A stretch of 28,168 bases of DNA from a virus (lineage: Duplodnaviria; Caudoviricetes). Under the pieces are notes generated by a model. That model made no database searches. It was not told the origin of the DNA and worked only from the letters and a program-made list of their open reading frames with translations. Of the stretch, positions 1 to 28,168 are shown piece after piece; position 1 is the first letter of the stretch; every line of letters starts with the position of its first letter. The DNA lies in the IMG/VR virus record IMGVR_UViG_3300006192_000028, positions 1 to 28,168 of that record. The stretch is one strand, 5' to 3'. The translations under genes and the position numbers were made by a program.

Positions 1-116
1 GATGATGAACGTTAGTAGCCTGCAATAAGCCGTGGGTGAAAGCCGACCGCCGAGAGAAGTTCGGCATCTTTCTCTGTTGGTGTGCATAAGGTTGGCCGCT
101 CCAGTAGCGGCCAGCT

Positions 117-180
117 GCTTATGTGCATCCGTTTATTTGTGCGGATGTGTTTCCGGTTATTTGTTTATTTGTCCATTTGT
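117..180. repeat. 8-bp-period degenerate array (candidate partition centromere)
   Basis: gcttatgt gcatccgt ttatttgt gcggatgt gtttccgg ttatttgt ttatttgt ccatttgt; resembles the array at 27641-27688. Confidence 0.5.
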
Positions 181-190
181 GGGGGTGTAC

Positions 191-373
191 ATGCTTGGAG
201 ACCTGACCAAGAGCCTGACCAGTGTGGCCGGTGATGCCCTGCGCGTTGCTACGGCTCCCGTAGAAGTTGCTGTCGACGCAGCCCGCATCGTTACTAGCCC
301 GGTGGCCGATGTGGCTCAGGAAATAGTTGACGAAGTGAAGGCCGCTGCCGACGAAAGCGGAAAAATTGGCTAG
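191..373 (+). CDS. Hypothetical 60-aa protein
   Basis: ATG at 191 follows a G-rich RBS-like GGGGGTG; the longer ORF-track start (32) runs through repeats and hairpins. Confidence 0.6.
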   Translation: MLGDLTKSLTSVAGDALRVATAPVEVAVDAARIVTSPVADVAQEIVDEVKAAADESGKIG

Positions 374-470
374 GGTCCTTCCTGGCCTTTGCCGCTCTGC
401 GGGTAACAAGCTCGCGGGGTTTGCCCGTCTAAAAAATTTTTTGAACTGGGTTTCCGGTTTCCGGTTGGTG
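373..470 (+). other. Lambda-like cos packaging site (cosQ, cosN, start of cosB)
   Basis: GGGTCCT at 373-379 equals lambda cosQ; GGGTAACAAGCT-CGCGGG at 401-418 parallels lambda GGGCGGCGACCT-CGCGGG; AAAATTTT and GTTTCCG follow as in lambda; directly upstream of terS. Confidence 0.75.
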
Positions 471-10796: not shown

Positions 10797-11532
10797 TTCA
10801 CTGTTACCGCCTAACGCCAGCGGGCTAGAACGTGACATCGAGCAGGTGATCGTTCAATCGACAGACTTGCCGATTCGCATCAAGAACCTGTGGGACCCAT
10901 ATTCCTGCCCTTTGTCGTTGCTGCCTTGGCTGGCCTGGGCCCTGTCTGTGGATGAGTGGGACGACCGCTGGCCGGAGCATATCAAGCGGCAGGTGGTGCA
11001 AGATTCTTTTGATGTTCACCGTTTTAAAGGCACCCCGTATGCGGTGCAAAAGGCGCTGGACAGTTTGAATATCAAAACGCACCTGCGGGAGTGGTGGGAG
11101 CCTGACGGAAGCCAGGAGCCCGGCACCATGACCGTGGTGGCCTTGATTAACGAAAACCTGACCGACGATGACAACGGGCTGATAACCGAAGCCATGCTGG
11201 AGCAGGTCACCCGGGTTATTCATACCGCTAAGCGCGGCGTGATCCACTTTGATGTGGAGCTAGGCATTAGCCTGGAGGAGACCTTGGGCCTCTCTGGTGC
11301 TATTGGGCCCTCTATCGCAGAGATAGACTTTTCTTCTGATTTTCTACCTATTGTTCCGGAGAAAGGTAGTGCTGACATGGCTTTTTCTGCAGCGCTCTAT
11401 GGTATTGGCTCTGCTGATTTTCTTGCTGATATGTCTGGTGTTATTCCAGATGAGTCCAGCAGCCATGTTTTTGTTTGTGGTGGGCTGGCTGGAATATCTG
11501 CATCGTGGTTGGAATTTGAAGGAGACCTTTAA
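10789..11532 (+). CDS. Baseplate/tail protein (P2 gpI-like) with C-terminal extension
   Basis: SLLPPNAS.LE, LWDP.SCP..LLPWLAWALSVDEW and H..KGT motifs. Confidence 0.92.
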   Translation: MSNSLLPPNASGLERDIEQVIVQSTDLPIRIKNLWDPYSCPLSLLPWLAWALSVDEWDDRWPEHIKRQVVQDSFDVHRFKGTPYAVQKALDSLNIKTHLREWWEPDGSQEPGTMTVVALINENLTDDDNGLITEAMLEQVTRVIHTAKRGVIHFDVELGISLEETLGLSGAIGPSIAEIDFSSDFLPIVPEKGSADMAFSAALYGIGSADFLADMSGVIPDESSSHVFVCGGLAGISASWLEFEGDL

Positions 11533-12068
11533 TGGCAGGGTTAAAACTGCAATTCACTGAGGCCGGGCTGGCAGAGCTTATCTCTGCAAAAGAGCAGGGC
11601 ATCAAGGGGGCTATTTCTCATCTTGCTTTTGGCGATATGGCTTACACGCCAAATAAGTCTCAGACGAGACTGCAGCGAGAGCAAGAGCGAGTAGAGATAG
11701 CTGATTATCAGGATGGTGGGCTGTCTTTGCGGATGGCTGCTGTTTTCTCGGGTGAGAAAGAATATGCAATCAGAGAGATAGGCGTCTTCTTATCAACAGG
11801 CACTCTTTTAGGTGTTTATTCGCAATCAGGGAAAACCATTGGCTACAGAACTCCGTCCGTAAAAGTTATGCAGTGGTTTACGTTAAATATAACGGCATTG
11901 CCTTCGGACAGCGTAACGGTCGTCGTTGGAACTGAGAACTTAAACTTAATTCTTGATGCGGAGTTTATGGAAAGCGCTGCCTCCTTTATGAGGCTTGGTG
12001 CCGCAACAATTAAGCAGGCGCTGTGGAATTTACAACTTAGCGAAAAAATCCGAGCTTTGGAGAGCTGA
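11532..12068 (+). CDS. Tail fibre baseplate-attachment protein (P2 gpH N-terminal domain only)
   Basis: T.AGLA.L, AFGD and IREIGVF..GTL motifs of gpH-type N-termini; only 178 aa, ends in a predicted helix. Confidence 0.8.
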   Translation: MAGLKLQFTEAGLAELISAKEQGIKGAISHLAFGDMAYTPNKSQTRLQREQERVEIADYQDGGLSLRMAAVFSGEKEYAIREIGVFLSTGTLLGVYSQSGKTIGYRTPSVKVMQWFTLNITALPSDSVTVVVGTENLNLILDAEFMESAASFMRLGAATIKQALWNLQLSEKIRALES

Positions 12069-12071
12069 TTA

Positions 12072-13304
12072 ATGGGAACAATTACAGAGCAAATTGAAAG
12101 CTTAAAAACTGCCTCCGCTGAGCAAACAGCCGCATCTCAGGCGCTGGCTCAGGAAGTATCAGGCAAAATGGCCGCCATCGATAAAAAGACTAATGACTCG
12201 ATAGCTAAAGTCGAAAGTACCTATGACCAAAAGGCCAACGGCTTGACGATCATTGCTACGGACGGCTATCGCAAAGCGGTCGAGCATAATTCAGGCGGTC
12301 GAAACACAGTCATTTATGATGCCCAGGGCAACCCTAATATCATGTGCGTCATCCCGCGCTTCAACATTGAAGACCTGGGATTAACAGAGCTTGATCTTGG
12401 CACAGGTGTTCACCCTGCATTTGTAACGAACGGAGCGCCTCGCGGCGAAATCCTTGTCGGCAAATATCTGGCGTCATCGGCGGCGGGCGGTTCTGCCGTT
12501 ATCGGTGGCCCTCAGCCGCGAACCTCAGTTAACTATGACACTGCAAAGCAGCTTTGCACGCAGAAGGGTGACAACTGGCACCTTATGTCGATTCACGAGT
12601 GGGCCGCCATTGCACTCTGGTCTCTGGCCAATGGTACTGTGCCTCGTGGTAATACGAACTATGGTCGCAGCCACGAAGCGAAGTGGGAAAACGCTCGACG
12701 TGCCGACAACGGACTGCCTGGCGATACCAGTGGCACTGGGCGAACCGACACAGGCAAGGGCCCCGCAACGTGGAATCACGATCATACTGAGTTCGGCGTA
12801 TGTGACCTGGTCGGCAACGTCTGGGAATGGATTGACCAGATGAAATTGGATGACGGCCAAATCCTGACAACGCTGGATAACAACCCGACGGTTGCTGAGG
12901 CTAACTGGCATCGCCACCCAGCCTATTTTGATTCGACATCCGACAACCAGAGCGGTGCTGGCAACAATGGTTCACCGGTGCTCAGCAACTCGGTTACCAA
13001 GCGTAACGGGCCTACCGATGACGATAGTCACGACTATCCGTACATGCACAACCCGCACTTTGCTGCGATCACAAAGTCGGCTGGATATACGCCTAACGAG
13101 CTGCTGCGTCGATTGCTCATCGAGTCAGCAACCGCAACGACAGTTGGCGGCGGCCTCTGGTGTCGCAACTATGGCGACCGATTCCCGCGTCGCGGGGGCG
13201 GCTGGGGCAGTGGCTCGGACGCGGGGCTGGGCGCGCTCAGTCTGGACAGTGCGCGGTCGTACTCGTACAGTTACATCGGTTTTCGCCCCGCTTTCTTTGT
13301 GTAA
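12072..13304 (+). CDS. DGR target protein: receptor-binding tail-fibre tip with FGE-sulfatase/C-type lectin fold (Mtd-like)
   Basis: N-terminal coiled-coil-like segment; GVCDLVGNVWEW and terminal RGG.W...GFRPA motifs; VR in the last codons; tail-fibre locus. Confidence 0.92.
   Translation: MGTITEQIESLKTASAEQTAASQALAQEVSGKMAAIDKKTNDSIAKVESTYDQKANGLTIIATDGYRKAVEHNSGGRNTVIYDAQGNPNIMCVIPRFNIEDLGLTELDLGTGVHPAFVTNGAPRGEILVGKYLASSAAGGSAVIGGPQPRTSVNYDTAKQLCTQKGDNWHLMSIHEWAAIALWSLANGTVPRGNTNYGRSHEAKWENARRADNGLPGDTSGTGRTDTGKGPATWNHDHTEFGVCDLVGNVWEWIDQMKLDDGQILTTLDNNPTVAEANWHRHPAYFDSTSDNQSGAGNNGSPVLSNSVTKRNGPTDDDSHDYPYMHNPHFAAITKSAGYTPNELLRRLLIESATATTVGGGLWCRNYGDRFPRRGGGWGSGSDAGLGALSLDSARSYSYSYIGFRPAFFV
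13176..13292 (+). repeat. DGR variable repeat (VR)
   Basis: 117-bp ungapped match to 13730-13846 with 15 mismatches, 13 of them opposite TR adenines. Confidence 0.97.
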
Positions 13305-13325
13305 CTGTTAACTGATTCTTTGGAT

Positions 13326-13343
13326 GGCGCACGGTAGTGCGCC
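13326..13343 (+). promoter_or_regulatory. DGR target-recognition hairpin/cruciform downstream of VR and IMH
   Basis: GGCGCAC-GGTA-GTGCGCC, perfect 7-bp GC-rich stem 21 nt after the target stop codon, no U-tract. Confidence 0.8.
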
Positions 13344-13364
13344 CTTTAGTTGTGCGGAGGCAAG

Positions 13365-13721
13365 TTGACAACGCTAATCATTGAAGAAAAATGCCGGGAA
13401 ATGATGATGTACGGCTATCAAGCAATAAAGCAGTTTCCGAAACATGAGCGCCATGTTTTAGGCGCGGAAATCAGGCTTTCAATGCTGCAACTTCAAAGAT
13501 TGATCATCACGGCATTTAAGCGATACCACAAGAAGACGACCCTGACCGATTTAGATATCGAGCTTGCCATCCTGAAGCGGCGAGTCAGGCTCGCCAAGGA
13601 CTTGCGGTATATCGACATCAAGAGATACGAAATATGGGTCGGCCAACTGGTTGAGCTTGGGAAAATGATAGGCGGCTGGATACGCTCCGTTAATACCAAG
13701 CAACAGGGGACGGCATTATGA
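13365..13721 (+). CDS. avd: DGR accessory variability determinant (Avd, four-helix bundle)
   Basis: FPKHERHVLGAEIR, LD.EL..L...VRLA.DL.YI and ELGKMIGGWI motifs; TTG start at 13365 after GGAGG (start uncertain). Confidence 0.92.
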   Translation: MTTLIIEEKCREMMMYGYQAIKQFPKHERHVLGAEIRLSMLQLQRLIITAFKRYHKKTTLTDLDIELAILKRRVRLAKDLRYIDIKRYEIWVGQLVELGKMIGGWIRSVNTKQQGTAL

Positions 13722-14995
13722 ATACGCGGAACCGATTCCCGCTTCGCGGGGGCAACTGGAACAATGGCTCGAACGCCGGGCTGGGCGCGCTCAATCTGAA
13801 CAATGCGCGGTCGAACTCGAACAGTAACATCGGTTTTCGCCCCGCTCTTGATGTAGCCAGAAACAACCATCCCAAGGGATGCTGTCAGTGCAATCATGAA
13901 AAGGATGCCGCCTCCTCGGCCATAGCCGGAACAGATATAAAGCCCATTGATGCGTCACTGGGCTGCTCATTTGAGAAGATATTTGATTTTGAAAATCTTT
14001 TATCAGCGGCATACTCATGCCGAAAGGGAAAAACAAAGGCGAACGCAACGCTGGTTTTCTTCAACAACCTGGAAGAGAACATCATAGAAATACAAAACGA
14101 GCTGATGTGGGGCATGTACAAAATGTCACCCTATCACCATTTTTACGTATTCGAGCCGAAGCGCCGCCTGATATCAGCCCCTCACTTTAAGGACAGGGTT
14201 GTCCATCGGGCTATATACAATGTTATCGAGCCACTGTTTGACAAAACCTACATCTATGACTCATACGCATGTAGACGAGGGAAAGGCACCCACAAAGGCG
14301 CTGACAGGGCTCAATATTTTATTAAGAAGGTAGAGTCAAAGCATGGCAAGGCGTATGCGTTAAAAGCGGATATTAGCCGTTACTTTTCGAGCATAGACCA
14401 CCAAGTATTGAAGTCTATTCTGGCGGCAAAAATACAATGCCAGAGAACGCTTGATCTGCTGTTTTACATCATTGATAACAGCCCTTGCGAATCAATGGGT
14501 GTAGGCATTCCGCTGGGTAACCTTACCAGTCAGATTTTTGCAAACGTGTACCTGCACGAGCTTGATAGATATGCAAAGCACGCACTTGGCGCAAAACACT
14601 ACATCCGCTACATGGACGATTTTGCCATCATTCACCACGACAAGACTGTGCTGCACCAGTGGAGAAAGGATATAGAGGAATTCCTGCACCTTTACCTGAG
14701 ATTAAAAACGAACAGCAAGACGCAGGTTTTCCCTATCTCAACGAGTAACGGCAGGAGCTTGGACTTTCTCGGGTATCGAATTTATTCGAGCCATAGGTTG
14801 CTGAGAAAATGCAGCGTCAAGCGAATTAAGACAAAACTTAAAAAGTATCGGTCTCAGTTCGCTAAAGGTGAGATAAGTCTCTCTGATATAAATCAGAACA
14901 TTCAATCCTGGCTTGGCCATGCTGGTCACGCCAGCACCTACAACCTTAAAAAGGCTCTTTTTGCTGAGCCATTCAGGAGGAAAACAGATGTTTAG
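13718..14995 (+). CDS. DGR reverse transcriptase
   Basis: EPKRRLI.AP.F.DRVVH, KADISRYF, GIPLGNLTSQIFAN (DGR-type SQ motif), YIRYMDDF, DFLGY; no frameshift or stop. Confidence 0.96.
   Translation: MNTRNRFPLRGGNWNNGSNAGLGALNLNNARSNSNSNIGFRPALDVARNNHPKGCCQCNHEKDAASSAIAGTDIKPIDASLGCSFEKIFDFENLLSAAYSCRKGKTKANATLVFFNNLEENIIEIQNELMWGMYKMSPYHHFYVFEPKRRLISAPHFKDRVVHRAIYNVIEPLFDKTYIYDSYACRRGKGTHKGADRAQYFIKKVESKHGKAYALKADISRYFSSIDHQVLKSILAAKIQCQRTLDLLFYIIDNSPCESMGVGIPLGNLTSQIFANVYLHELDRYAKHALGAKHYIRYMDDFAIIHHDKTVLHQWRKDIEEFLHLYLRLKTNSKTQVFPISTSNGRSLDFLGYRIYSSHRLLRKCSVKRIKTKLKKYRSQFAKGEISLSDINQNIQSWLGHAGHASTYNLKKALFAEPFRRKTDV
13730..13846 (+). ncRNA. DGR template repeat (TR), core of the DGR RNA
   Basis: Invariant-type copy of VR with 11 AAC/AAT codons and 25 adenines; between avd and the RT core. 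Confidence 0.95.
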
Positions 14996-15263
14996 TTACA
15001 TCTTTCAGGGTCGAACTCACACAGACACGACCCGCAGCTATATGAATTCGCTTGGCATGACTCAGGAGCAGGTCGACTCTGTTCTTCAGCAAAAAGACTT
15101 TGAAGAGGCTCAAAACCTCGTCAAGAGAAAAGAGGCTTACCGCCTCGAGTCAGACCCTCTTTTTATGGAATGGCAGTACGACAATACGCCTGAGTCTGAG
15201 CAAGCATGGCGTGAAAAGGTAGCGGAAATCAAAACCCGCTATCCACTACCAAGCGAATCATAA
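14988..15263 (+). CDS. Probable tail fibre assembly chaperone (91 aa)
   Basis: ATG at 14988 after AGGAGG; R..AY..ESDPLF.EW...AW..KV.EIK.RYP motif typical of proteins encoded after tail fibres. Confidence 0.7.
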   Translation: MFSYIFQGRTHTDTTRSYMNSLGMTQEQVDSVLQQKDFEEAQNLVKRKEAYRLESDPLFMEWQYDNTPESEQAWREKVAEIKTRYPLPSES

Positions 15264-22626: not shown

Positions 22627-23346
22627 ATGGATGTATTCCTATCGTTATTATTTATTGTTGTGTTATTTGCCTTTGTGGCCGGGTTGATAAAGCCAGCCTG
22701 GATTAAGCAGGAAACCCGTGGTCGAGTGCTTAAATTCTATGGCCTTGGTATGTTGGTGCTTCTTTTGCTCATCGGCTTGGTTGCTGATCCTGTTGAGCAG
22801 GCACCGGCTAACAATGAGATGGCAGCGCAGCAGCATTCAGCCAAAGAATATGAGTATTCAGGTAAAACATTGGCTGAGTGGAGAGATGCCTCAAAATCTG
22901 ATCGTGATGAAATGGTATCTGATTTTGTCAGTGTGAAATCACTTCCTGATGCCGCAAATGATTTGTTCTATCGCTGCCTTAGTCAGATGAGTATGACCAA
23001 GTCTGATGAGCTTACAATAGGTCAGGTTCTTGGCTGGTGTCAGGCTGATTACGATAAAGATCCTGCAAAACTTTCCAGTATGGTGAATTTTGATAACTTC
23101 AAAGGCCAGTTCAGCGCTTGGGATGGCTCTCATAGAAATCTGGAGAAGTACATAAAGTCGATGATGAACGACGAGAATTCTTATGAGCATGTGGAGACAA
23201 GATATCGACTTGTCCTTGACCAGAATCCGCGAGCGATAGTGACCACAGTCTTTAAGGGGAAAAATGCCTACGGCGGAGTGGTTAAGCAGTCTGTTTCAGC
23301 TGCTGTTGACATAGAGACGGGCAGAATTATAGAGATCATTCAATAA
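22627..23346 (+). CDS. Membrane-anchored hypothetical protein (moron)
   Basis: Two N-terminal hydrophobic segments then a soluble region; own RBS, putative promoter and terminator; looks more AT-rich than the tail genes. Confidence 0.8.
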   Translation: MDVFLSLLFIVVLFAFVAGLIKPAWIKQETRGRVLKFYGLGMLVLLLLIGLVADPVEQAPANNEMAAQQHSAKEYEYSGKTLAEWRDASKSDRDEMVSDFVSVKSLPDAANDLFYRCLSQMSMTKSDELTIGQVLGWCQADYDKDPAKLSSMVNFDNFKGQFSAWDGSHRNLEKYIKSMMNDENSYEHVETRYRLVLDQNPRAIVTTVFKGKNAYGGVVKQSVSAAVDIETGRIIEIIQ

Positions 23347-23410
23347 AAAAGACCCAGCACAAGGCTGGGCCAAAGGAAGACTCGCCGACCCAAACGGCGA
23401 GTTTTTTACT
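23345..23410. terminator. Convergent terminator pair
   Basis: A6-gaCCCAGC-acaag-GCTGGG (terminates - strand) and ACTCGCCG-acccaaa-CGGCGAGT-T5 (terminates + strand) between convergent genes. Confidence 0.8.
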
Positions 23411-23411
23411 T

Positions 23412-24293
23412 TTAATGTTTCATCGATCCTTTTACTGCATTGATAGCGAATGGCAGGTCTAAAATCACATCCCGCGAACGAGAGAATGCCTTATCCATGC
23501 CGTTTTTTGCCTCAAGTAGTTGGCCGTAGCGGTCACGGCCAAGCTGTGCGTAGTGAATCAGCGTTTCCAAGTTTTCTTTGTCTACAATGACCTTGCCTTC
23601 TGGAACTTTGGTCATCATTTCCAGCGCCCAGGCTTGTAGGTGCTTGGCATCGTATTTGGTACTTTTGCCAGAAATCAGTAGGCAGCCTTTAGGGCTGAAA
23701 AGCAGCGAGTATTGTTCGGAGCCGGTTTCCTGGTAAACGCGAACGCATTCGCGGTCGAAATCAAGGCGGTTTGTGTGATAGATGCGGCTGATAGCAGGGC
23801 GCTGGCAATATTGAAGGAATACGCGCAGTGACCAGGCTGGCACCCATGGTTTGCCATCAAGAATGATCGCCGTTATCTTGCGACCGTTCTCCAGTGTGTA
23901 GTCTACGGTGGAGGTATCCGGCAGGGTGTTTTCGTTGTAGCAAATAGGGTTGCCGTATCGCTCTTCTTTTTGACGTTGCAGCTCCTCTGCCATCTGATTA
24001 AAGGCGTTGATGTACGCCTCTTTAATGGCGGCAGCCTGTTTGCCAGTGAACCCCATAACCAGGAAGATAAAGCCGTCTTTGGTCATCTCGTAATAGGTGT
24101 AGGTTTCGCCATTTTGTGGGTGCGTGTAGGGGTGTGCGCAAAAATGCGCAGACCTAAATTCCTTGCTACAACTGATGTTGTCTATTTTTCTGAGGATGTC
24201 TCTGTGGTTCTTACCAAATGCTTCGGCAACCTTGAGAGAGGTGGTGGTGATGGCTTGGTTATCGCTGAGTGATACGTGGGTTTGTAAATTCAT
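23412..24293 (-). CDS. Rha-family phage regulatory / antirepressor-like protein
   Basis: TTSLKVAEAFGKNH..ILRKI and YEMTKDGF.FLVMGFTG..AA..K.AYI.AFN.M Rha motifs, plus a second C-terminal domain. Confidence 0.9.
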   Translation of the reverse strand: MNLQTHVSLSDNQAITTTSLKVAEAFGKNHRDILRKIDNISCSKEFRSAHFCAHPYTHPQNGETYTYYEMTKDGFIFLVMGFTGKQAAAIKEAYINAFNQMAEELQRQKEERYGNPICYNENTLPDTSTVDYTLENGRKITAIILDGKPWVPAWSLRVFLQYCQRPAISRIYHTNRLDFDRECVRVYQETGSEQYSLLFSPKGCLLISGKSTKYDAKHLQAWALEMMTKVPEGKVIVDKENLETLIHYAQLGRDRYGQLLEAKNGMDKAFSRSRDVILDLPFAINAVKGSMKH

Positions 24294-24339
24294 ATTTGTG
24301 ATCCTTTAGAGAGTATTTGCCACCGTCTGGATTGAGGGG

Positions 24340-24428
24340 TGGCGGGACTCACTCTCAAGGCGAACACAGTTGCCGTTGCCGCCCATATTTCCCTTGCGGG
24401 TATTCTATTCCGGGCTGTCATCCCGCCA
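24340..24428 (-). ncRNA. c4-like antisense RNA in the rha leader
   Basis: Closing stem TGGCGGGA/TCCCGCCA, CCC-GCAA-GGG hairpin, and segments CTGTGTT and TTGAGAG complementary to two target pairs in the same transcript. Confidence 0.8.
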
Positions 24429-24460
24429 TAACAGGTATGGCTGCGCCAAATTGCAGGCAT

Positions 24461-24513
24461 AAAAAAGCCGCAAGGCTATCGGGTGCGGTTGACCGCTGCG
24501 TTACTTTTGAGAG
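24461..24513 (-). promoter_or_regulatory. c4 a1/b1-type target and conditional terminator
   Basis: - strand reads CTCTCAA-aagt-AACGCAG, then competing hairpins GCGGT-CA-ACCGC and CCGCA...TGCGG-CTTTTTT. Confidence 0.7.
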
Positions 24514-24607
24514 GGCTCCAGATTAACCCAAACTGAGCAAATCAGCAAGAAGCCCTCTTTGGAGTTGTTAGTAGCTATCATCTAAAATAGAGTAGCTAGG
24601 TACTGTT

Positions 24608-24904
24608 CTATGACTCCTCCTTCTCTGGCTGTTCTGCTGCTTTCTGTTTTACGATAGCCATACAGCTTCCTTGGCCCGTTTGTCTAACGAATGCGTGATA
24701 GACGGTCTTTGTCAGTTCTGAATACAGGGTCGGGGTGAATGGAAGTAGCGCTTCCGCAATCTCCCCGAATTGTTCCAGGTCTACACCAAACTTTTCAATT
24801 AGTGGTGAGTCGAAGTCTTCATCGTCATTGATGATGTCTTCGGTTTGCTCCTCTGTGAGTCCAAGTGCGGCACCAGCTAGCATTTGTAGGTCTAAATAGT
24901 CCAT
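24608..24904 (-). CDS. Hypothetical acidic protein (98 aa)
   Basis: AAGGGG RBS; packed in the leftward operon. Confidence 0.8.
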   Translation of the reverse strand: MDYLDLQMLAGAALGLTEEQTEDIINDDEDFDSPLIEKFGVDLEQFGEIAEALLPFTPTLYSELTKTVYHAFVRQTGQGSCMAIVKQKAAEQPEKEES

Positions 24905-24914
24905 TGGTTTCCCC

Positions 24915-25784
24915 TTAATTATTTAGTAGTTCTGATGAATTATTTTCGTCGGTTTCAAACCATGATGAGTCGTCAGGGTAGCTATCAACATAACAGTCGT
25001 TACCAAGCGGTTCACCGTTCCATATCTCTTGCGCCATTAGCGCCTCCCCATTATCAAACACCCTGACCACTCTGGTGTGTCCGAAGGCTGTGACGATGAA
25101 TTTGCGTTCGCCATCTTCAAACTCGCCATCAAGAGCCATTTCGGTGAGGTCATTTTTTCTTAGACTGACTTGTACCAGGCTGCTTCCGCAATCAGGGCAG
25201 CCGCACTGTGATTTCAGGCGCTGCATAGTGTCACACCATTTCCCTGCCATGGATGCAATCACCCCTAATGTCATTTTGCAGTCAGCCAGAGCGCGGTGTG
25301 CTGTTCCTTCAATAACAACGCCTTGCTGTTTCGCTGCATTTCCCAGGCGTTGCCATTTCCATTGCTCACGGTAGTCATCCCACTCCCCGTAGAACTCTGC
25401 ATAAGCCAGCATGGCGCAGTCAGCTTCTAGCCATAGAGTTTCCAGGATGTTGTGTAGGTTGCTTGTTTGGTCGATGATTCTCAGGTCATAGTCGGCGTTG
25501 TAGATAACTAAATCACGGCCTATGACGATTTCTTCAAACTTACGGATCACTTCTGGCCATGTTGGGGCTTCGGCCACCATCTCGTTAGTTATTCCGTGAA
25601 TGCGCGTGGCTTCTGCTGGAATTGGTGACGTAGGTTTTACCAGCGTATCAAGTAGCACTTGGCCGGTGCAGTCTATTATGCTGATTTCGATTATCTCAGC
25701 CCTTTCATCTAGGCCAGTTGTTTCTGTGTCGAGTATTAATGCGTTATTTTCTAGCCACTGCAGGGCTTGTTGTTTAGGTGTCAT
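24915..25784 (-). CDS. DEDDh 3'-5' exonuclease (DnaQ/epsilon-like) with C-terminal extension
   Basis: ILDTETTG, IHGIT, YNADYD and HRALADC motifs. Confidence 0.93.
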   Translation of the reverse strand: MTPKQQALQWLENNALILDTETTGLDERAEIIEISIIDCTGQVLLDTLVKPTSPIPAEATRIHGITNEMVAEAPTWPEVIRKFEEIVIGRDLVIYNADYDLRIIDQTSNLHNILETLWLEADCAMLAYAEFYGEWDDYREQWKWQRLGNAAKQQGVVIEGTAHRALADCKMTLGVIASMAGKWCDTMQRLKSQCGCPDCGSSLVQVSLRKNDLTEMALDGEFEDGERKFIVTAFGHTRVVRVFDNGEALMAQEIWNGEPLGNDCYVDSYPDDSSWFETDENNSSELLNN

Positions 25785-27939: not shown

Positions 27940-28078
27940 AACTGTACATATACAGCATTGCGACACATAAATAAATAACTGTACATATATTTATAATTGC
28001 ACACACTCGCCATAAAATAACTGTACATATATTTATTTTATTAACTGTACATATACCAATAAATTAACTGTACACATA
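27940..28078 (+). repeat. Sub-telomeric direct repeats AACTGTACATATA
   Basis: Exact copies start at 27940, 27977, 28019 and 28043; one-mismatch copy at 28066. Confidence 0.9.
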
Positions 28079-28168
28079 CCAACTTGCACATGTGTACATA
28101 TAGTCTAATTAGACTATATGTACACATGTGCAAGTTGGTATGTGTACAGTTAATTTATTGGTATATGT
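28049..28168. repeat. Perfect 120-bp palindrome: protelomerase telomere site / hairpin end
   Basis: Axis between 28108 and 28109 (TAGTCTAA|TTAGACTA); 60-bp arms match perfectly to the last base of the window. Confidence 0.9.

Follow-up and report, generated by a model that had tools for sequence, protein, structure and literature searches.

We examined a 28,168-nt stretch of viral DNA (the window), which is the single IMG/VR virus record IMGVR_UViG_3300006192_000028, estimated to be 67% complete, and found that it carries an intact diversity-generating retroelement (DGR) of the kind present in phages VHML and VP58.5. The element combines avd, a repeat serving as template (TR) and a reverse transcriptase (RT) with a target gene that ends in a variable repeat (VR), and the VRs of sister copies differ almost only where the TR has an adenine. 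The DGR likely alters the face with which a C-type-lectin fibre tip binds, so as to change or track receptors, and we give this reading a probability of about 0.88. The features are collected in Table 1.

Table 1. Features of the retroelement and its surroundings in the window
Feature	Position	Strand	Description
Tail-collar/fibre-anchor protein	11532..12068	+	178 aa; PF12571, 28 bits (cut-off 23); phrog_3737 tail fiber, E 5e-78
DGR target	12072..13304	+	410 aa; long N-terminal helix and FGE-type C-type-lectin domain; PF03781
[quoted passage not shown]
Codon 373	13188..13190	+	CGT (Arg), CTT (Leu) in TR; recurrent non-adenine T>G
Hairpin	13326..13343	+	GGCGCAC-GGTA-GTGCGCC; 7 bp, GC-rich; 33 nt past the VR end
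avd	13365..13721	+	118 aa from a probable TTG start after GGAGG; NF033474, 108.6 bits (cut-off 80); PF22296, 108 (cut-off 40)
Reverse transcriptase open reading frame (ORF)	13718..14995	+	425 aa; first ATG overlapping the stop of avd; RT core begins near residue 86; PF00078
Template repeat (TR)	13730..13846	+	25 adenines; in frame with the RT ORF; same sequence in 6 of 9 close copies
TR-RT spacer	13847..13965	+	RNA with predicted structure and fold-back onto the TR 3' end; also stop-free in the RT frame
91-aa ORF	14988..15263	+	Fibre module member; adjoins the target where avd-TR-RT is absent
Telomere palindrome	28049..28168	.	Perfect 60+60 nt, closing the contig; homolog of the VP58.5 site that adjoins gp40 (protelomerase family)

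The initial annotation had described a complete cassette of target with VR, hairpin, avd, TR and RT, and all five parts were found with their frames intact. Its alignment of the two repeats was recomputed with the same outcome. The VR and TR align without gaps over 117 nt (offset 554) with 15 mismatches, and 13 of these lie opposite TR adenines (10 A>G and 3 A>T; hypergeometric p = 7e-9). The other two are at 13189, where a T in the TR is a G in the VR and Leu becomes Arg at residue 373, and at 13223, which is silent. A recount also gave the 25 adenines and 11 AAY codons that had been reported for the TR, or 15^11 = 8.6e12 variants. Since the first AAY codon reads GAC in all nine close VRs, it may be outside the rewritten zone; the remaining 10 AAY codons together with an AGT and an ATC codon still provide about 1e13 variants. 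No second VR for this TR was found within the window.

The flanks of the VR and TR part ways after 13292, which is the divergence that distinguishes IMH from IMH*. A hairpin lies 3' of the VR and none follows the TR. Its GGTA loop matches the GRNA loop consensus for DGR hairpins given in a paper that lists VHML in the legend of its Fig. 5 (PMC3240598). The region 13293-13365 was predicted to fold with -11.3 kcal/mol (z -2.55), and the hairpin has a compensatory base pair in one related locus (L010). An Rfam search returned 0 matches.

Comparison of VR and TR across relatives had been proposed as a check that could refute an active element, and it revealed adenine-specific variation. A sister contig (G001) differs from the window at 15 positions in 15,654 nt; 14 of these are in the VR, 13 of them at TR adenines. 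The nine close copies have nine distinct VRs and near-constant TRs (six identical), and pairwise differences between their VRs number 507 at the 25 TR-adenine sites versus 42 at the other 92 sites. Among 45 distinct TR/VR pairs, 590 of 1,135 TR adenines are changed, 354 of the 590 to G. No two of these VRs are alike and each tracks its own TR. Since G001 differs almost only in the VR, recent activity of the DGR appears well supported. The assignment to the BPP-1 class made in the initial annotation also agrees with the anatomy and with the adenine-specific divergence among relatives. Among the related loci, TRs short of adenines (A>G) were seen at L011:5564-5680 and L277, and a VR-like TR at L012:325-441; these could be due either to self-homing into the TR or to an assembly chimera.

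Metagenomic runs provided less uniform data. In run X2, flanking contigs with 0 differences to the window (depth 194 and 207) end at the VR, and short VR contigs with depths of about 97 and 42 span the gap. These contigs hint, short of proof, at a mixture of VR alleles within one sample, and the 42-depth contig may come from a related phage. Run X3 duplicates X2 and is not independent. Two results weigh against an element at work: contigs from the likely source run (X1) are identical across the VR, with no VR variants, and 0 reads of raw-read run X22 matched the window in the approximately 1% of the run examined. One possible explanation is that the element is real but now silent, and that the VR differences are old alleles swapped by recombination between phages. 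This would fit the absence of within-sample variation in X1, the clear recombination of the fibre module between phages, and the whole or partial loss of the engine at 20 of 39 assessable target loci. Against it stand VRs that are all different in the 45 pairs, each tracking its own TR, a sister contig that differs by 1 base in 15.5 kb outside the VR, and RT and avd genes free of lesions. We consider a silent element very improbable.

By sequence, the cassette is a near-copy of the VHML/VP58.5 DGR and is already known. The initial annotation was right that the class is not new and that VHML has a DGR, but it understated how familiar this one is. The window is 96.0% identical to VHML (NC_004456) over window positions 69-28096 and 96.1% identical to VP58.5 (NC_027981) over 402-22808, and VP58.5 holds the same intact cassette. 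This high colinear identity places the phage, for the part covered by the incomplete record, with the genus Vhmlvirus. VP58.5 (gp18-gp20) has the same TR, gene order and telomere palindrome as the window, 0 indels over 12072-15263 and a 425-aa RT ORF that likewise includes the TR; its target, Avd and RT are annotated in RefSeq. It differs from the window in its VR allele, in 76 substitutions in the target before the VR, and in a divergent block at about 22.8-25.8 kb. The segment that varies relative to VP58.5 (window 22808-25769) contains a Rha-family regulator (23412-24293) and a DEDD exonuclease (24915-25784). VHML has a TR identical to that of the window. In avd and RT its record departs from the window at 35 small indel sites, because of which avd is unannotated there; these indels are probably old sequencing errors. 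A study of 4,203 phage isolates, which cites VHML and VP58.5, reported DGRs in 3, two being marine Vibrio phages (PMC6199706), and a DGR on a linear-plasmid phage is already on record in VP58.5. Runs X1 to X7, which match the stretch best, are freshwater, gas-well and rock metagenomes, none of them marine.

The discovery value is small, since the same element in the same kind of phage is already in RefSeq and in DGR papers. The value lies in the data: a sister genome that differs almost only in the VR shows recent activity of a VHML-type element, which the indel-ridden VHML record cannot.

Two other known systems were compared. The Pseudoalteromonas phages ACA1, ACA2 and proACA1-A resemble the window in having a split collar and antireceptor, avd and the same small downstream ORF, in a TR that would be translated as an extension of the RT, and in variation concentrated in the VR (PMC10612066). 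They are unlike it in their P2-like integrating backbone, with DNA identity at 69%. The BPP-1 element (mtd-avd-TR-brt) shares the order, the adenine-specific change, the GC-rich 3' segment, the GRNA hairpin and the catalytic and mutagenesis residues of the RT. Its target is Mtd, whereas that of the window is TaqVP-like, and in contrast to BPP-1 the RT frame of the window is open through the TR and spacer. A>G also dominates in the window family, whereas bRT in vitro slightly favours dA insertion, leading to A>T (PMC7826257).

The target is likely the receptor-binding tip of a fibre, as suggested by the collar gene upstream, fused homologs, the gene slot in phage MAR and the label given to its ACA homolog. 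Homologs at 72-93% identity to the target body are fused to tail-fibre anchor domains, and of six longer homologs tested, five join tail-fibre N-termini to this body. In MAR the equivalent slot is taken up by ordinary fibre genes, and the ACA homolog is termed antireceptor (PMC10612066). The collar protein likely docks the variable protein on the baseplate. A 93%-identical target body with different fibre anchors was seen in P0001 and P0002 (labelled Proteus and Providencia), which appear to record a recent cross-order transfer of the body.

The protein is closest to TaqVP, from a Thermus aquaticus prophage DGR (PDB 5VF4; E 4e-60 over residues 62-409, with the VR part ungapped), compared to which the target has an extra N-terminal helix of about 70 residues. 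A structure model (pLDDT 80.5, pTM 0.75) placed a single helix at residues 4-74 and gave parts of the VR low confidence; no clear heptad pattern was found in the helix. A SUMF1/EgtB enzyme annotation of the target was discarded, as it describes the fold only.

Several points count against a role in receptor binding. In the available portions of the literature no receptor or binding was found for any family member, TaqVP is a monomer with no known ligand (PMC6328139), and prophage-type antireceptor peptides were unexpectedly abundant in the ACA study, whose authors suspect that there is more to them (PMC10612066). A ligand-binding protein expressed by the lysogen would suit those peptide counts from ACA1 preparations, the single-domain monomer of TaqVP and the weak tail-family matches of the target itself, but the target gene sits directly 3' of the collar gene within the tail operon, its homologs are fused to tail-fibre anchors and the MAR fibre genes occupy its slot, which leaves this only a slim prospect.

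By analogy with BPP-1, the element would work as follows. Avd and RT would copy the TR RNA, primed from the folded spacer, and errors would be made at TR adenines during copying. The cDNA would then replace the VR beside the IMH and hairpin. The target would form the fibre tip, attached to the collar protein encoded upstream, where its rewritten C-type-lectin binding face could change or track host receptors.

The layout of the cassette needed two corrections: the RT ORF begins upstream of the TR and includes it, and avd probably starts at TTG 13365. The ACA1 avd homolog is annotated from the equivalent TTG. No PDB sequence matched avd at E 0.001. The RT had been described as having YMDD and GNLTSQ motifs and no lesions, and its frame of 425 codons is uninterrupted. 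YMDD lies at 14609-14620 and LGNLTSQ at 14513-14533; the RT scores under the group II intron cut-off. The closest solved structure is PDB 8UB7 (E 1e-58; the next is 7e-20), labelled 'Reverse transcriptase', which we take to be BPP-1 bRT. F66, R74, A78 and I181 of 8UB7 fall at the positions given for bRT in PMC7826257. R74 and I181, which promote mutagenesis in bRT according to the same paper, correspond to R150 and L266 of the window RT in an alignment counted by hand.

Compensatory change was found at 9 of 35 predicted pairs in the spacer fold (10 sequences). The prediction pairs an invariant spacer segment, GAAAAGGATG, with the 3' end of the TR, which resembles the fold-back priming of the BPP-1 DGR (PMC5703328, PMC6182149). 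This predicted helix shows no two-sided covariation.

We infer that translation of the RT starts at the ATG that overlaps the stop of avd, so that the TR and spacer form an N-terminal extension. This ATG is kept in all 20 loci checked. In the subclade with the overlap, the RT frame is open through the TR and spacer in 32 of the 33 copies with the RT core in reach, the exception being the VHML record, compared to 1 of 8 copies outside the subclade. In the RT frame, 0 of 23 distinct spacers contain a stop, versus 13 and 23 of them in the remaining two. Third codon positions of the spacer are about twice as variable, three indels preserve the frame, and an in-frame ATG, GTG or TTG is absent from 24 of 34 spacers.

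Another possible explanation is that the RT is unfused to the TR and starts at a non-canonical ATT at 13946, the upstream open frame being a by-product of constraints on the TR and RNA. An ungapped extension of the 8UB7 alignment places the first residue of 8UB7 at Ile77, which is this ATT; the TR is stop-free by design and is stated to be untranslated in vivo (PMC5758913). The distribution of spacer stops, the variable third positions, the frame-preserving indels and the constant ATG all argue against this start. In addition, some relatives have GTT or a Leu codon in place of the ATT, and no evident ribosome-binding site precedes it. We regard this weak ATT start as unlikely, although it has real points in its favour. 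The fusion of TR and RT was already remarked for the ACA phages (PMC10612066), and a literature search gave no reports beyond this one and PMC5758913. The spacer-coded peptide has a conserved CCQC-like cysteine cluster (13880-13891, RT ORF residues 55-58), which may reflect RNA rather than protein constraint.

The Leu373Arg change is beyond the reach of adenine mutagenesis. Non-adenine changes were counted over positions 5-117 in 43 pairs, which are the 45 pairs minus L011 and L277 with their adenine-short TRs; the rows behind these counts are not mutually independent, so that p-values exaggerate the contrast. T>G was the commonest non-adenine change both in this set (17 of 23) and in 139 more distant pairs (24 of 63), with G/T changes making up 17 of 262 differences in the background. 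At codon 373 (VR codon 5), 8 of 39 T were changed to G, compared to 9 of 930 elsewhere, one of which is an alignment-edge case. Five of the eight scattered T>G changes adjoin a mutated adenine. The codon-373 cases are 13189 of the window and loci L003, L005, L009, L013, L022, L025 and L187. Arg373 requires six changes on a 27-row element tree, five of them forced by well-supported branches, and in four of the eight cases the VR follows its own TR to either side of the codon. Among 110 aligned proteins 22 have Arg at this position, as do 5 of 6 loci from a distant clade, those perhaps being related. The position aligns with the variable, exposed Ile344 of TaqVP and is a Leu codon in the window TR.

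These data allow the tentative suggestion that natural DGRs have a second, uracil-templated channel (mostly T>G), from which selection repeatedly draws Arg (xLRGG to xRRGG) at a binding-face codon. With it goes the idea that in the subclade the template RNA is RT coding sequence, so that a transcript serves as either message or template, which could self-limit the mutation rate. Both together seem to us possible and still rather doubtful. Uracil-templated errors of bRT, raised after a prior error, have been reported (10.1101/2025.03.24.644984), and non-A changes are known from surveys (PMC5758913). A preference for T>C, not T>G (PMC6642488), counts against generalising the T>G spectrum seen here. 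No report of the recurrent Leu-to-Arg site was found in the available portions of the literature searched. Quasi-palindrome repair was also considered as the source of Leu373Arg, since T>G perfects CCCGCG-T-CGCGGG; it is weakened, the cDNA case aside, by Arg occurring in none of the TR codons listed and by T>G recurring in other sequence contexts. Both the template fusion and the repeated change to Arg are side leads of modest weight.

The initial annotation had placed the element on a linear-plasmid phage, a setting that homology makes likely. The palindrome is present, as is ParA (NF041546 above cut-off), and the palindrome centre matches the VP58.5 site beside gp40. A protelomerase adjoins the equivalent site in VP58.5, a layout described for telomere phages (PMC10612081). 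The phage likely lives as a hairpin-ended linear plasmid like VP58.5, which is called a linear plasmid in the title of Zabala 2009 (cited in PMC6199706 and PMC10612081). Speaking against this are the same title, in which VHML is called integrating, and the lack of a protelomerase gene on the contig, which ends where that gene should follow. Either a hairpin end or a break in the assembly would account for the palindromic end. A scan of viral contigs for the telomere centre gave 0 matches. The perfect 60-nt palindrome was rejected as proof of a hairpin end because the VP58.5 virion-form record already has 44-bp perfect arms and because the left arm (window 28017-28108) resembles the protelomerase-side arm of VP58.5 and VHML, not their parA-side arm. 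At the other end, window positions 69-401 match the far end of the VP58.5 record, so that the contig crosses the opening point of that record, which is likely a packaging end.

The linear replicon is not part of how the cassette works, since complete proviruses without protelomerase also contain the cassette. A protelomerase was found in one of seven complete DGR-bearing IMG/VR records tested. Two complete proviruses have only the cassette in common within the first 20 kb, one of them at 96% over VR to RT. The cassette is thus a mobile fibre module to which replicon type is incidental. Present in near-identical form in proviruses with different backbones, the intact cassette offers a compact system in which to test whether the RT is translated across its own template, and whether uracil errors at a low level give selected variants in nature.

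After correction of the classes by reading of spacings, 42 distinct target loci comprised 19 with avd and RT, 15 with the small ORF right after the target, 5 seemingly part-deleted and 3 cut by contig ends; three further loci without a VR end were left out. The loci with the target followed by the 91-aa ORF and no avd-TR-RT are L174, L175, L176, L182, L186, L188, L189, L275, L276, L279, L283, L293, L297, L299 and L300. Trans-diversification of these engine-less phages was considered and rejected, as VR differences of 13-21/117 are too little above those of the flanks (28-69/600). The 91-aa ORF is possibly a fibre assembly factor; it had no common Pfam family in Atlas clusters and a lead to XkdW was weak. 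Several engine-less loci retain the hairpin.

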